From Methanopyrus kandleri AV19 (GTDB lineage: Archaea > JAADCQ01 > Methanopyri > Methanopyrales > Methanopyraceae): a stretch of DNA of 32,000 bases. Position numbers and translations under genes: made by a program. The notes beneath the pieces were generated by a model. It had not been told where the DNA came from. It saw only the letters and a list, made by a program, of their open reading frames with translations, and searched no databases. The stretch is taken from assembly GCF_000007185.1 (NCBI RefSeq), contig NC_003551.1, forward strand, positions 600,001-632,000, in the 5' to 3' direction. This document shows, one piece after another, positions 2,534 through 21,286 of this stretch; position 1 is the first letter of the stretch; every line of letters begins with the position of its first letter.

Positions 2534-3211
2534 TTGCGGGCCGTCGCGCTGCTGAGCGGTGGGAAGGACTCGACGCTGGCCGCGCACCTGGCGGTCGAAG
2601 AGGGTTACGAGCTGACACACGGACTCACCGTGGTGCCCTCTGATCCGGAGAGCATGATGTTCCACGTGCCGAACGCGGACCTGGGGGCGCTAGTGGCCCA
2701 GGTGATGGGACTCGAACCCGTGAGGATACGGTCCGGACGGGACGACGAGGCGGACATCGAGGAGATAGCTCGCGTCCTCGAGGGGCTCGACGTGGACGCG
2801 CTGGTCTCCGGAGCGATCGCGTCCAGATATCAGAAGGAGCGGCTGGACAGGCTGTGTGAGGAGCTTGGGATCGAGCACGTGCACCCGCTGTGGGGGATGG
2901 ACCCGTTCGAAGAGCTCGAGCTCCTAGTGGAGCGCGGTTTCGAGGTGATGATCATCGGCGTGTCGGCGGCTGGCATGGACGAGTCCTGGCTGGGCCGCAG
3001 GATCGACGAAGACTTCATCGAGGACATCCGACGGTTGTACGAGAAGTATCGCATCCACCCCGCGGGTGAGGGGGGCGAGTACGAGACTCTCGTCCTGGAC
3101 GCCCCCCTCTTCGAACGGAGGATCGTCCTCGAACGCGTCGAAAAGCGGTGGGACGGCTTTTCGGGCGAACTGATCGTGGAGGAGGCTCGACTCATGCCCA
3201 AGCGACGATGA
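2534..3211 (+). CDS. PP-loop ATPase of the MJ0570/Dph6 family (diphthine-ammonia ligase-like)
   Basis: 225 aa with a TTG start. SGGKDS PP-loop at residues 8-13, VSGAIASRYQKERL, PLWG, and GEGGEYETLVLDAPLF near the C-terminus. Confidence 0.8.
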   Translation: MRAVALLSGGKDSTLAAHLAVEEGYELTHGLTVVPSDPESMMFHVPNADLGALVAQVMGLEPVRIRSGRDDEADIEEIARVLEGLDVDALVSGAIASRYQKERLDRLCEELGIEHVHPLWGMDPFEELELLVERGFEVMIIGVSAAGMDESWLGRRIDEDFIEDIRRLYEKYRIHPAGEGGEYETLVLDAPLFERRIVLERVEKRWDGFSGELIVEEARLMPKRR

Positions 3212-3310
3212 TCGAACTGAGCTATGGCCGAGCGCCGCGGAGGCGCGATGAGCGGGGACACGGGGGTGAGTTCACACCCCCGAATCGAAAGCGGGTGAAA
3301 CCGGAAACTG

Positions 3311-3327
3311 TTAACTTTATTTTTTTT
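3311..3327 (+). promoter_or_regulatory. AT-rich TATA-like box / T8 run upstream of the acidic ORF (could also terminate the Dph6-like gene)
   Basis: TTAACTTTATTTTTTTT lies about 30-45 nt upstream of GGAGGG (3344-3349) and GTG 3358. A GGGGGTG-AGTTCA-CACCCCC hairpin sits at 3262-3281. Confidence 0.4.
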
Positions 3328-3357
3328 ACGTGGTGTAAGTGTCGGAGGGATGTCCCG

Positions 3358-4410
3358 GTGGGTCGCGACGAGGGTGAGGACAAGTTCGACGGTGGGGATG
3401 AAGGTACCTCCGACGAGCCGGACGTACCCGAGATCCGGCTCGACGGAGAGTCGGACGGCCCCGATCACGATCACCCCGAAGGTCCCGACTCGGATTCGGA
3501 GCCTCAGTACCCTCAGAACATCCTCTCGCACGAGGGAGACCACACCGACATCGACGTGTCCAACACGAACATCAGTACAGCCGAGTCCGACTTGGAGGCC
3601 GATCTGGATTCGAACTCGTACAGCGAATCGAGCAGCGAATCGGACGCGACCCAGTACACCGCCCAGTACTCCGACCTGGATCAAGACACGGATCAAATAC
3701 AGGATTCGAGGTCCGAATCGATCTCCGACGTGGAGAGCGTCCAGGAATCCAGCTCGGAGTCCAACCCCGACGTGGACGTAAACGTCGACAACGTCGTGGA
3801 CGTTGACGATCCCGCCGATCCCGGCGTTATCTACGACGTCGACAGGGAGGTCAACGTCGACGATAGGGACACGTACGTCGAGGAGAACGTCTACTACGGG
3901 GACACCGACCGGACGATCTACGACCCGCGGACTGACTCGGACACGGGGTCCGTCGACCCGTCGTCCGATCCGACTACCGCCGGGGATCAGGTCGTGGTCG
4001 GTTCCGAGGACCCGTACATGGTCCTGGACACGCAGAAGGGTCAGGTGGACGTGCTCGTGGGTGAGGACCCCACCACCATAAACATGGGCCAATCGGAGCT
4101 CTCGCAGCTACTGGACCTGGTGAACTGGCTCGACGGGAACGCACCGTCCGATGTGCTGGACTTGCTGTACCAGCTCCTGGCGTACCTCCTGGAGACGTTC
4201 TACGGTCTGATACCCTTGGACAACATCCTGAACATGATCCAGCAGATCGCAGAGTACGCGCTCAGCGGTGAACTCGGTCTCGACGTGCTCAACCAGCTGT
4301 TGGGCGTCCTTGAAACGGCCACCAGCCCGCTGTACGCGGCCACCGAGATCCTGAAGTTCCTCGGGGACTTGGACCTGGGTTTGGACGCCCTACTGGACAT
4401 CGATATCTGA
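3358..4410 (+). CDS. hyper-acidic orphan protein (Asp/Glu/Ser-rich ~240 aa region plus Leu-rich helical C-terminal ~110 aa)
   Basis: GTG 3358 is in frame with tracked ORF 3148..4410 (V71), 8 nt after GGAGGG. The protein reads MGRDEGEDKFDGGDEGTSDEPDVPEIRLDGESDGPDHDHPEGPDSDSEP...DVDVNVDNVVDVDDPADPGVIYDVD... and ends ...LLDLVNWLDGNAPSDVLDLLYQLLAYLLETFYGLIPLDNILNMIQQIAEYAL...LGDLDLGLDALLDIDI. No signal peptide or TM segment, and no family recognised. Confidence 0.65.
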   Translation: MGRDEGEDKFDGGDEGTSDEPDVPEIRLDGESDGPDHDHPEGPDSDSEPQYPQNILSHEGDHTDIDVSNTNISTAESDLEADLDSNSYSESSSESDATQYTAQYSDLDQDTDQIQDSRSESISDVESVQESSSESNPDVDVNVDNVVDVDDPADPGVIYDVDREVNVDDRDTYVEENVYYGDTDRTIYDPRTDSDTGSVDPSSDPTTAGDQVVVGSEDPYMVLDTQKGQVDVLVGEDPTTINMGQSELSQLLDLVNWLDGNAPSDVLDLLYQLLAYLLETFYGLIPLDNILNMIQQIAEYALSGELGLDVLNQLLGVLETATSPLYAATEILKFLGDLDLGLDALLDIDI

Positions 4411-4732
4411 CTCTCCGCTTAACATCCCTCGGATCTTTGCGACACCTTATATTTAAATCTGGAAACGTAACCGTATTTTCAGGGTCATACGATTTACGTA
4501 TCATTCGTGCATGAAAGTTGAATGATAGCACGTAAATAGTATGGTACCAATGCATAGATTACATGAGCGTTATCGCATGGTCCGTGCAAGTGTAACGTAT
4601 TATCGTCGAAGAATCGTAATATTATTTACGTACGATTTTTCGACAATCGTACATAGATCGTAATATCCAACATCGAGTTAACGCCCGCGGGAAGTTCAAG
4701 AGCTCGATTTATTTGCGGAAAAGACAGTTCGA
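4411..4732. repeat. AT-rich (about 36 % GC) island with iterated CGTA-core motifs between two convergent genes
   Basis: Nine CGTA cores lie between 4465 and 4662. ATCGT-N6-ATCGTAATAT occurs at 4602-4622 and again at 4646-4666, with half-sites 11 bp apart and copies 44 bp apart. TACGATTTACGTA (4488-4500) and TTTACGTACGATTT (4625-4638) are permuted versions of one word. Confidence 0.7.
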
Positions 4733-4987
4733 TCACGTGATGGCGTTGGCGTACTTCTCGACAATTTCGACACCTTTCTGTCGGGCCATCTCCGCCGCCA
4801 TCTTGGCGGCCTCCTGAGCCGCACGACCCGCGTCTTTGGCCATTACCCACCAGAGGACCGATATCTCCAAGAAGGCCCACACGCAGATCGCCGCGGCCAG
4901 CAGTAAGTACTCGACTCCTCCCTGGCCCCGGTTCCGGAGCACGTTTCGCGACAACCTAATTCGCCCCCACGAGTTAAGGAAACTCAA
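4733..4987 (-). CDS. small pilin-like protein with an archaeal class III (type IV pilin-like) signal peptide
   Basis: 84 aa with a TTG start. The N-terminus ...RNRGQGGVEYLLLAAAICVWAFL fits the [KR]G-Q-x-x-x-E-x-x-x-L class III signal motif followed by a hydrophobic helix. An upstream minus-strand CATATTTTTT element at ~5030-5040 is TATA-like. Confidence 0.6.
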   Translation of the reverse strand: MSFLNSWGRIRLSRNVLRNRGQGGVEYLLLAAAICVWAFLEISVLWWVMAKDAGRAAQEAAKMAAEMARQKGVEIVEKYANAIT

Positions 4988-5375
4988 CCTGCGACGCTGA
5001 GCGTGCTGGGTATCCCGTCAACTGTACGCCAAAAAATATGGTGGGACCCACCCGAGCACTTTCATGCTATATGGAACAGAAGGGTAGGCGGGAACCCGCT
5101 ACGGTCGGTGTCTTCCGATCAGTTTAACCGCGGTTAAGGCGAGTGGGTTTACCCCGGGCGATGACCGGGCTGAACTCGACCGAGCGTGCCGGGCGCAATG
5201 AGGAAGGGACCACGGGGTGAGGCCCGCTCGGAGGCCTTCCGTAAGCCAGGGATGAGGAGCGCTCCCGATACGGTTTCCCGCGGATCGGTGACGAGTGCGG
5301 GACCCAACCGACCGCTCCCCCTTCTACTCCCTGTCCTACTCCTCGAAGGTGGGTCCTTATTTGGAAACTAGCCGT

Positions 5376-5490: not shown

Positions 5491-6189
5491 ATGGCCGGAC
5501 TACCTACAGCCCGTCCCGACGCCACGCCCGTCCGGGCACCGGAACGCATCCGCGTCCCCGAACCACCGCGGGACCCCGTCGAACAAGCCCGGGTTCTACG
5601 CGTGCTCCTCGAAACCGTGAGACGCGGAGTGCTCCCGTTCCTGGGTGCGTCGTATCGGTCGGTGAACGGGAAGGTGTATGGGCCGTACTACGAGGCTCGG
5701 TGGAAGCCGCGGAAGGGCGAGCGCGGCCGCACCATCTACCTGGGCAAGTCCGAGAATGAGAGCGTCCGGTTCCTGGAGGCGTGGCTATGGGAGGTACGCA
5801 GGGCCGCCCCACGGCTGGCCGAACACCGGAAGGCCAAATGGTTCGTCGCACGGGCCGTCCGGAGGGCGCTCGCGGCGCTCCTGGCCCGGTTCGAGGGCGA
5901 CCCAGAGGAAGCCCTCGAGCTGGCGGGTGAGGTCCTCCGCAAGGTCGGAGGGATACTGACGGGAATGCCGTTCGACCCACTGCGGACGTACTCCAGGCCG
6001 AGGGGCGGTAGAAAGCTCCTCAGGATGCTTCTCGGGCGGACCCCTGGCGAGTTCCGCGACGTTCTCCTGGAGATGCTCAGCCCGTGGCCACCCTGGTACT
6101 GTCTGACACTGCTCGAACGTCTTCACGGGAGAACCGCGGCGCGCGAGTACCATCGGGCGAGGGTTCCGCGGCCCGGATCGGCGGCATAA
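5491..6189 (+). CDS. Arg-rich basic orphan protein, possible DNA/RNA-binding
   Basis: ATG 5491 (M25 of tracked ORF 5419..6189) is preceded by GCGGGGGAAC. The segment YRSVNGKVYGPYYEARWKPRKGERGRTIYLGKSENE recalls the beta-hairpin DNA-binding modules seen in some recombinase or transposase N-termini. The other five frames look like GC-rich junk. No family confidently recognised. Confidence 0.5.
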   Translation: MAGLPTARPDATPVRAPERIRVPEPPRDPVEQARVLRVLLETVRRGVLPFLGASYRSVNGKVYGPYYEARWKPRKGERGRTIYLGKSENESVRFLEAWLWEVRRAAPRLAEHRKAKWFVARAVRRALAALLARFEGDPEEALELAGEVLRKVGGILTGMPFDPLRTYSRPRGGRKLLRMLLGRTPGEFRDVLLEMLSPWPPWYCLTLLERLHGRTAAREYHRARVPRPGSAA

Positions 6190-20317: not shown

Positions 20318-21286
20318 TTGTTCTACTACCCGGGTAAGGAGCAGAAGGTGTGCGACATCTGCGGTGTGAAGGTCGGTGGCCAGCCCGGTGAGTACCCGAC
20401 CGTGCTAGCCGGTACCATCTTCTATGCCGGACACAAGATCGTGAAGGACGAGGACAAGGGGATCTTCGACGAGGAGGCCGCCGAGGAGCTCATCAAGATG
20501 GAGGAGGAACTCGCCGACGAGACCGGTAACCCGATGATGGCCCACATCATGGGTGAGTCAGAAGAGGCCATCATCCGCTACCTCGACTGGGTAGCCGACG
20601 TTACCGACGCACCCATCATCGTGGACTCCACCGAAGCCGAGGTCAAGGTCGCGGCGGTAAAGCACGCTCAGGAGGTCGGCCTCGCCGAGCGGGTGGTCTA
20701 CAACTCGATCAACGCCTCCGTCGAGGACGAGGAGATCCAGGCCATCAAGGAGTCCGACTGCAACTCGGCGATCGTCCTGGCCTTCAACCCGATGGACGCT
20801 TCCGTCGAGGGCCGTATGAAAATCCTCACCGAGGGCGAGGAGGGAGTATCCGAGAAGGGCATGCTGGAGATCTCCGACGAGTGTGGCATCGAGAACCCGC
20901 TGATCGACACAGCCTACACGCCGTTCGGCTCCGGTGCGGGTACCGCTTACAAGGTGACGCTCGCGGTGAAGGCCAAGCTGGGCCTGCCGGTGGGCGGTGC
21001 GCCCCACAACGTGCCGTCCGCTTGGGACTGGCTACGTGACTTCATGAAGAAGCTCAAGGAGGAAGGCAAGGAAGAGTGGGCCGAGCTAGCCCACGAGTCC
21101 TCCGACTGGGGCTCCAACGTAGTGGCGGCGACGCTGTGCTGCGACTACCTGCTGTTCGGTCCGATCGAGAACGCGCCGGCGATCTGGCCGGTCGTCGCCA
21201 TGGTCGACGCGCTGATCGTCGAGGCCAACGAGGACGTCGGCGTCGAGCCGCAGGTGGAGGAGCACCCGGCCAACATCGTCCGCTAA
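20318..21286 (+). CDS. mtrH: tetrahydromethanopterin S-methyltransferase subunit H
   Basis: 322 aa with a TTG start after CTTGGGGGTG. KVGGQPGEYPTVLAGTIFY...APIIVDSTEAEV...VVYNSINAS... Confidence 0.95.
   Translation: MFYYPGKEQKVCDICGVKVGGQPGEYPTVLAGTIFYAGHKIVKDEDKGIFDEEAAEELIKMEEELADETGNPMMAHIMGESEEAIIRYLDWVADVTDAPIIVDSTEAEVKVAAVKHAQEVGLAERVVYNSINASVEDEEIQAIKESDCNSAIVLAFNPMDASVEGRMKILTEGEEGVSEKGMLEISDECGIENPLIDTAYTPFGSGAGTAYKVTLAVKAKLGLPVGGAPHNVPSAWDWLRDFMKKLKEEGKEEWAELAHESSDWGSNVVAATLCCDYLLFGPIENAPAIWPVVAMVDALIVEANEDVGVEPQVEEHPANIVR

Follow-up and report, generated by a model that had tools for sequence, protein, structure and literature searches.

A spacer in the genome of the archaeon Methanopyrus kandleri AV19 (contig NC_003551.1) contains what we read as a polar, head-to-tail array of about 20 degenerate 11-bp units (4456–4675) that would act at the DNA level and be read by a protein. 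On the sequence comparisons described below, we put the probability of this reading at roughly 0.45. The stretch analysed, hereafter the window, spans 32,000 nt (genome positions 600,001–632,000) and has a G+C content of 63%; coordinates refer to the window unless stated otherwise. The spacer itself, 4411–4732, lies between a plus-strand gene for an acidic protein and a minus-strand gene for a pilin-like protein (Table 1). What persists in the array during evolution is its phase, a 5-bp core YGYAW in each helical turn and an alternation of purines and pyrimidines.

The 11-bp register emerges from several measures. Base autocorrelation over 4456–4680 is positive at all 12 tested multiples of 11, with a mean z of 2.05, and the direct-repeat spacings returned by a repeat finder, 44, 77, 99 and 132 bp, are every one a multiple of 11. 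Stacked in rows of 11 from position 4456, the sequence follows a consensus A-T-r-A-T-y-r-T-a-g-y: column 1 is A in 14 of 20 rows (16 of 20 in Methanopyrus sp. KOL6), columns 4–5 read A-T in 14 of 20, and columns 7–8 are mostly G-T. When 17,462 windows of 220 nt from about 190 kb of Methanopyrus-related DNA were scanned for periodicity, the top 25 all fell on the array locus or its orthologues. Tandem Repeats Finder gave no report at a score of at least 30, as the units are too degenerate for it. Purine–pyrimidine alternation reaches 0.625 in the array, the maximum of the window, against a background of 0.483 ± 0.045, and alternating runs of six or more hold 75 array bases where 24 are expected. 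This enrichment recurs in all five sequences examined (z 3.5–4.4), whatever their G+C content.

A preliminary description of the spacer had drawn attention to its composition and to iterated CGTA words, and its measurements hold. The flanking stop codons lie at 4408–4410 (plus strand) and 4733–4735 (minus strand), and 4441–4680 contains 87 G+C in 240 nt (36.3%), exactly as counted by hand. The spacer is indeed the AT-richest part of the window, the lowest 240-nt segment being 4442–4681 at 35.8% and the next lowest elsewhere 50.8%. Nine CGTA words (4466, 4472, 4497, 4531, 4596, 4615, 4629, 4648 and 4659) stand where base composition predicts about 0.8. The bipartite repeat ATCGT-N6-ATCGTAATAT is recovered by the repeat finder at 4602–4622 and 4646–4666, 44 bp apart (family D2), and the two permuted words are present at 4488–4500 and 4625–4638. 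The 11- and 44-bp spacings that had been taken for higher-order structure are therefore real, but they form only part of the 11-bp register that runs from 4456 to 4675. Where the description went astray was in treating CGTA, ATCGTA and ATCGT-N6-ATCGTAATAT as the key feature, since these motifs are not conserved in relatives: the CGTA count falls from nine in the window to six in a close relative (L008) and three in KOL6, where one of the five copies of ATCGTA/TACGAT, that at 4488, survives. CGTA is simply the commonest alternating word in the AV19 array, a surface symptom of the register. Its other inference, of an element that acts as DNA through sites spaced by one helical turn, is supported by the register, the lack of indels and the 11-periodic conservation.

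For comparison, orthologous loci were retrieved through the neighbouring Dph6 and DUF1678 proteins. Close orthologues came from M. kandleri-like assemblies (L008 and L011) and from KOL6 (L007); together with the window they are referred to as the four orthologues. L010 and a contig of a metagenome-assembled genome (MAG) named 'Methanobacteriota archaeon' (L018, with the same MAG appearing again as L024) stand for a much more distant lineage with 70% G+C. In addition, assembly GCA_013329715.1 has a contig that overlaps the window by 13 kb and is 100% identical to it there. The AT-rich island sits between the same genes in L008, L011 and KOL6, its G+C content is 36–39% in all four orthologues, and the four align without a gap from 4456 to 4800. 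Autocorrelation is positive at 12 of 12 multiples of 11 in each of them (mean z 1.9–2.35), and among periods of 5–23 no other behaves likewise except the harmonic 22.

The array changes in an unusual manner. Not one gap event was found in it against 70 mismatches with KOL6, 28 with L008 and 24 between L010 and L018, while adjacent spacers of the same genomes show gaps and mismatches in ratios of 29/78, 10/51, 13/50, 6/29 and so on, or 0.2–0.37 gaps per mismatch. At that rate, 5–17 indels would be expected in the array. Substitutions also follow the register. Across the 20 units, the numbers of variable sites in columns 1 to 11 are 3, 3, 13, 9, 10, 3, 9, 6, 4, 4 and 6, an 11-periodicity with a permutation p of 0.0014–0.002, which remains at p = 0.003–0.008 after control for base identity and CpG context. 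Among the other periods from 2 to 21 and 22, only the harmonic 22 (p = 0.025) and 16 (p = 0.045) stand out, the rest having p of about 0.1 or more. The conserved columns (9, 10, 11, 1 and 2) adjoin one another and yield the core YGYAW, as in CGTAT, TGCAT, CGCAT and TGCAA, once per turn, with about six freer positions in between. Of the 20 cores, nine do not vary among the four orthologues. Taken together, the missing indels and the periodic variation indicate constraint.

The same data bear on whether the spacer encodes a small protein, either from the open reading frame (ORF) of 40 codons at 4541–4663, whose translation had been given correctly in the preliminary description, or from another frame. 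One frame is open from 4529 to 4660 in the four orthologues and several others are open for 30–40 codons. Yet the ATG at 4541 is ACG in every relative, and a peptide begun at the following in-frame start shares only about 38% identity between the window and KOL6, whose DNA is about 75% identical. Variable sites show no 3-nt rhythm (p = 0.11) beside a clear 11-nt one, and family searches gave no matches. Several frames are open by chance, and a coding role is effectively refuted.

A more serious alternative is that the array is a decaying minisatellite, an 11-mer amplified by slippage that now erodes by transitions without any function and has had too little time to acquire indels. The units are only loosely alike, which together with the silence of Tandem Repeats Finder would suit such decay. 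The array differs by 10.1% from L008 and 25.3% from KOL6, at or above the 7.4% and 21.5% found at fourfold-degenerate sites of the flanking genes. Transitions account for 26 of 28 changes relative to L008 and 63 of 70 relative to KOL6 (90–93%, compared with 81% and 62% at fourfold sites), enough to preserve a purine–pyrimidine pattern unaided, and the CGTA-type motifs are lineage-specific, with the array absent altogether from one related locus (L020). Against erosion alone speak the gaps gathered by adjacent spacers of the same age, the 11-periodicity of variable sites after base and CpG control, the persistence of the array at quite different G+C contents and an 18-nt block that is identical across lineages whose coding DNA is about 78% identical. 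We consider a functionless repeat unlikely.

That block belongs to the 70% G+C lineage, where L010 and L018 contain a homologous 11-periodic array of about 300 bp at 52–60% G+C, with units such as ATCTATGCATA, ATCCATGCATT, ATCTACGTATC and ATCCGTGCATC; in a first scan with 165-nt windows, it gave the strongest 11-periodicity of all (z up to 6.45). Between L010 and L018, the array has accumulated 17 differences in 300 nt and no gaps, against 2–3 differences in the flanks. Block 1 of the window is the best-kept part across the genus, and its L008 form, TACGTATCATCCGTGCAT, matches L010 and L018 at 18 of 18 nt. The cores of block 2 are invariant in the four orthologues, and its words ATCGCATG and GATCCGTGCAA recur in L010 and L018. 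The best-kept cores, CGTAT-TGCAT (4497–4512) and CGCAT-TGCAA (4574–4589), are thus those of the blocks common to the distant lineage; outside block 1, the rest of the island no longer aligns with L010 or L018. Only the M. kandleri/KOL6 clade shows the extreme AT-richness, which is secondary and plausibly driven by transition-dominated decay of the freer positions. A scan of public genome and metagenome collections with the block-1 pattern returned only the 70% G+C MAG, along with chance hits, and there was no match in viral contigs. A pattern from the right flank matched none of the public genome or metagenome contigs, though it matches the fetched loci; AV19 and KOL6 are apparently either masked in those collections or absent from them.

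Surroundings of the array differ between the lineages. In M. kandleri, the flanking genes converge on it, whereas in the L010 lineage they are transcribed away from it. There, a minus-strand DUF1678 gene lies on one side of the array, where TTTAAA-type boxes occur, and a TATA-like AATTTATTAAG on the other. The latter is followed by homologues of the C/D box small RNAs (sRNAs) 50 and 51, directly beside the array (window 5156–5313 aligns to L010 10205–10347), and by a gene for a secreted protein.

We propose a scheme that would join these features. Eleven base pairs make about one helical turn, more so at about 100 °C owing to thermal untwisting, and cores placed every 11 bp would align on one face of the duplex, where a putative sequence-specific protein would occupy successive cores side by side. 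An indel would turn all downstream sites off that face and would be rejected, while spacers and weaker cores could drift. The array would then serve as a regulatory or architectural nucleoprotein platform, operator-like and dispensable, which in M. kandleri would have come to lie between convergent genes once the acidic-protein and pilin-like genes had moved into the locus. We favour such a platform over an essential chromosomal site because of the outward promoters in the distant lineage, the TTTAAA at the array edge and the dispensability seen in L020.

Several observations weigh against a protein-read array. Constraint on it must be weak and patchy, as its divergence is not below that of fourfold sites. 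The offsets between blocks in the two lineages are 75 and 87 bp, not multiples of 11, so that phase would be kept within sub-arrays and not for ever. In L020, whose contig begins inside sRNA 49, window 3272–5152 is replaced by 515 nt of unrelated DNA (L020 72–586) between sRNAs 49 and 50, and the array is consequently dispensable or movable. The comparison as a whole rests on four closely related and two distant sequences. Static curvature is not elevated in a wedge-model estimate, which is weak evidence; the array is predicted to be straighter than most shuffles. Nothing ties the neighbouring DUF1678 to the array, and the locus of a DUF1678 paralogue has none. DUF1678 is a basic protein whose AlphaFold model has a mean predicted local distance difference test score (pLDDT) of 58.7, with only an N-terminal alpha-beta3-alpha domain (residues 29–105) confident; the best Foldseek hits are double-stranded RNA-binding domains at E > 1, insignificant and unusable. 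Searches of the neighbouring proteins against NCBIfam and PHROGs were uninformative.

DUF1678 itself is a Methanopyrus-only family with two paralogue groups per genome; members lie at window 5491–6189, L019 6001–6690 and L021 8001–8726. Both DUF1678 promoters have TTGTGCGTCTGTAA...AATTTAA in common, and the spacer upstream of the KOL6 paralogue (L021 7715–7850) corresponds to an unclassified palindrome-rich small RNA at AV19 543,338 with a coverage of 24,600 (PMC3695527).

The array sits in a plastic pocket bounded by C/D box sRNA genes. The segment replaced in L020 holds the acidic-protein gene, the array and the pilin-like gene. Most of the acidic-protein gene is missing from L008 and L011, where window 3447–4126 and 4188–4434 are deleted, as far as position 4435 (L008 10733–10999). 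As the whole gene is absent from L020, the acidic protein is dispensable. In L019, where the locus is rearranged, DUF1678-HypF follows directly on sequence from the left flank of the paralogue locus (ThiN-DUF1246-CofC...), a junction that indicates recombination between DUF1678 paralogues. In all, the array is present in L008, L011, KOL6, L010 and L018, is replaced in L020 and lies at a rearranged locus in L019, so that it is not indispensable at this site, or else is movable.

Such plasticity could mean that the array descends from a mobile element. It would then be a replication region, or one like an attachment site, with arm-type protein sites, brought in together with the acidic-protein, pilin-like and DUF1678 genes. 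The presence/absence and rearrangement polymorphism of the pocket and the use of DUF1678 paralogues as recombination points in L019 would fit, as would a likeness to phage attP regions, which are AT-rich, about 240 bp long and carry many short phased sites. No integrase, Rep protein or viral family was recognised among the neighbours, though, and the island gave no BLAST match in plasmid and phage collections and none in viral contigs, where DUF1678 was not found either. The repeat finder detected no terminal repeats bounding the island, and the flanking genes have the normal G+C content of the host. A mobile origin therefore seems very improbable.

The preliminary description had also proposed a replication origin. 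On this account, the array would be a chromosomal origin or unwinding element, or a centromere-like segregation site, with 11-bp iterons read by a non-Orc initiator or adaptor beside easily melted DNA. Methanopyrales is one of two archaeal orders without a recognised Cdc6/Orc1 (PMC3914693, PMC2643942); no origin was located in Methanopyrus strain SNP6, and none was matched in DoriC for SNP6 or KOL6 (PMC5504354). The literature provided no coordinates for a mapped or predicted M. kandleri origin. An origin would agree with the array being the AT-richest 240 bp in 32 kb, with its phased direct repeats and palindromes, and with its fast, transition-rich substitution, which frequent single-strandedness would explain. 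A conserved 21-mer pattern has one copy in the sole related genome returned from the collection and is apparently single-copy. Positive support is nevertheless lacking. With the consensus TCCANNGGAAAC and up to two mismatches, no origin recognition box (ORB) or mini-ORB was hit in 4411–4732; such hits are fewer in the window than in shuffles, and a single TGGAAAC occurs at 4460. Nowhere in the 32-kb window was a gene for replication, repair, recombination or partition recognised. The flanking genes point into the array, local cumulative skew tracks gene orientation with no turn at 4.5 kb, and the pocket is rearranged, truncated or replaced among close relatives, with the array absent from the L020 locus. 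We regard an origin or segregation site as quite improbable.

Transcription of the spacer is a further reading. The TTTAAA at the left edge of the array is box A, the TATA element described for promoters of M. kandleri (PMC3695527). TTTAAA occurs four times in the 32 kb, against 0.5 expected, at 4452, 10987, 13691 and 16314, the last three preceding the starts of mcrB, mcrG and mtrE by 39, 41 and 97 nt. The array could belong to a low-abundance non-coding or antisense RNA starting from 4452, or to the minus-strand mRNA of the pilin-like gene as a long 3′ untranslated region (UTR), and repeated 11-nt words of the RNA would bind an RNA-binding protein. Besides the company that TTTAAA keeps at strong promoters elsewhere in the window, the minus-strand fold (z = −2.6) leans this way. 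Palindrome B keeps its pairing through G-U changes in 92.7% of cells on the minus strand and 80.4% on the plus strand, with 24 and 10 pairs, respectively, showing one-sided compatible changes; this better pairing on the minus strand is suggestive only. The box is not strictly kept, being CTTAAA in L011 and TTAATT in KOL6.

Other evidence disfavours an RNA. Rfam gave no gathering-score hit in the window and none in 4411–4732 even at E ≤ 10. Fold z-scores reach only −1.8 and −2.6. A survey of all AV19 intergenic regions for RNAs above 500 reads lists nothing in 604,411–604,732, between sRNAs 49 and 50, a threshold that leaves room for rare or long RNAs (PMC3695527). Pairs with double changes number two in the plus-strand structure and six in the minus-strand one, and covariation across the four sequences is within the range of shuffles. 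At about 100 °C, an RNA of 36% G+C would probably not hold a structure, and RNA stems and loops do not evolve with an 11-nt rhythm and a strict exclusion of indels across 220 nt. A T-run also follows 11 nt past the pilin-like stop. The earlier judgement that the spacer is a DNA-level element finds agreement in the lack of an RNA family match, of a reported small RNA and of a conserved ORF, and we hold a transcribed element to be distinctly unlikely.

Assembled read sets offer one further observation at the array. Logan contigs of runs ERR97657xx that are 100% identical to the window stop at 4559 (three contig types, in 7, 1 and 2 samples), and another, from 11 samples, starts at 4670. The bracketed gap is 110 nt, or ten units, and positions 4560 and 4669 are invariant among orthologues. 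The breaks may stem from a variant in the central ten units or, should the runs be RNA-seq, mark transcript ends, which would accord with transcription. Inversion of 4560–4669 was rejected, as it would shift the break to 4560/4561.

Among known systems, the closest precedent for one protein dimer per 11-bp iteron, by analogy, is parC, the type II partition centromere of plasmid R1, where about one ParR dimer binds each 11-bp iteron, ten iterons are present, and the iterons double as an operator beside the promoter (PMC2241845). The Methanopyrus array resembles parC in its side-by-side direct repeats of exactly 11 bp, about one turn each, and in the TATA-like box at its edge, with promoters on both sides in the 70% G+C lineage. 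R1, however, has two sets of five well-matched iterons that are strongly curved and lie directly upstream of parM and parR, whereas the Methanopyrus array comprises about 20 very degenerate units, has no predicted curvature and is chromosomal and archaeal. No actin-like, ParA-like or ribbon-helix-helix gene lies near it, and no ORF in the window or in the retrieved loci belongs to the parR/parM families or their equivalents. Archaeal origins of the ORB/mini-ORB type share an AT-rich intergenic core with short repeats and palindromes; they have a few inverted boxes around that core, unlike the head-to-tail 11-bp array between convergent genes, which has no ORB-like sequence and no adjoining orc1/cdc6 or other replication gene.

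Origins of iteron plasmids (pSC101, P1, F and R6K) likewise consist of tandem, phase-sensitive direct repeats for one protein, and the L010 DUF1678 gene starts beside the array much as rep genes start beside iterons. Plasmid iterons are 17–22 bp long, few and well conserved, and are accompanied by a Rep protein that can be recognised as such, often with DnaA boxes as well. No relation between DUF1678 and Rep proteins could be detected. Minisatellites and Z-DNA-prone tracts have a short tandem unit and strong enrichment of alternating runs in common with the array, which differs from them in being indel-free with position-specific conservation, a sign of constraint.

Should a protein read the array, it would be a chromosomal archaeal counterpart of iteron or parC-style arrays, with one short site in each of twenty turns and no known partner genes in its vicinity, and it could be used as bait for an uncharacterised DNA-binding protein of an organism that grows near 100–110 °C. 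Its signature of fast transitions, no indels and conservation with the period of the double helix is unusual and easily searched for. An origin would matter because the origin and initiator of Methanopyrus are not known, while a decaying repeat would be of minor interest.

Coordinates of the array, its parts and the surrounding features are collected in Table 1.

Table 1. Features of the array and its neighbourhood in window coordinates.
Feature	Position	Strand	Remarks
Phased array, about 20 degenerate head-to-tail 11-bp units	4456–4675	+	Autocorrelation, stacked rows, periodicity scan
TTTAAA box	4452–4457		Left array edge
Conserved block 1, TACGTATCATTCGTGCAT	4495–4512	+	Cores CGTAT and TGCAT; best-kept array part across the genus
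Conserved block 2, ATCGCATGGTCCGTGCAA	4572–4589	+	Cores CGCAT and TGCAA; 77 bp (7 units) from block 1; family D3, spacing 77
Imperfect palindrome A	arms 4486–4506, 4520–4543		Inverted repeat I5 and fold; pairing poorly preserved in relatives (helices 3–4, 78–83% of cells)
Imperfect palindrome B	arms 4597–4618, 4631–4652		Inverted repeat I2, 82% complementary
Hairpin ATCGAG...CTCGAT	4672–4708	-	Just downstream of the pilin-like gene, outside the array; probably 3′-end structure of its mRNA
T-run, CTTTTCC on the minus strand	4719–4722	-	11 nt past the pilin-like stop; read from sequence
Dph6 gene	2534–3211	+	Gene order around the spacer
C/D box sRNA 49	3202–3272	+	Exact match, PMC3695527 Table S1, AV19 603,202; left border of the variable pocket
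Acidic D/E/S-rich protein	3358–4410	+	350 amino acids according to gene finders; left flank of the array
73-amino-acid pilin-like protein	4733–4954	-	Class III signal peptide; weak match to Pfam PF04021, E 0.0024; right flank
C/D box sRNAs 50 and 51	5154–5318 (sRNA 51: 5246–5318)	+	Table S1 matches; sRNA 50 at AV19 605,153; right border of the pocket
DUF1678 gene	5491–6189	+	Followed by HypF (minus strand), then further on mcr and mtr operons and biosynthetic genes

The acidic protein belongs to no Pfam, NCBIfam or PHROG family, and its gene must start later than the mechanical ORF of 3148–4410, which engulfs sRNA 49. The pilin-like protein is 89% identical in KOL6, and its gene was called in L001, L007, L008 and L011. 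The hairpin downstream of that gene is paired in 100% of cells in the four orthologues; seven of its eight pairs are invariant and one varies on one side, from U-G to U-A. The T-run beyond the stop would likely act as the terminator of the gene, and M. kandleri 3′ ends in Table S1 of PMC3695527 finish in similar T-runs.

Elsewhere in the window, the motif TCCGTGCAW is not enriched and no tRNA genes were found. The 3′ UTR of MK0662 (AV19 621,212; PMC3695527) was matched exactly at 21,211; together with the exact matches of sRNAs 49 and 51, it assigns the window to AV19 600,001–632,000. On the minus strand, sRNA 52 maps near 27.7 kb. Other islands of about 200 bp with 36–38% G+C occur in Methanopyrus spacers (L021 6193–6392 and L019 4145–4344), between genes for proteins of 296 and 428/435 amino acids. 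They have no 11-bp periodicity and no similarity to the array, so AT-richness alone is not unique to the array locus. Upstream of Dph6, KOL6 has an ORF of 453 amino acids (L007 8643–10004) with 31–42% G+C and no Pfam hit, probably a foreign insertion; at the same site, M. kandleri has an antisense ORF of 135 amino acids.

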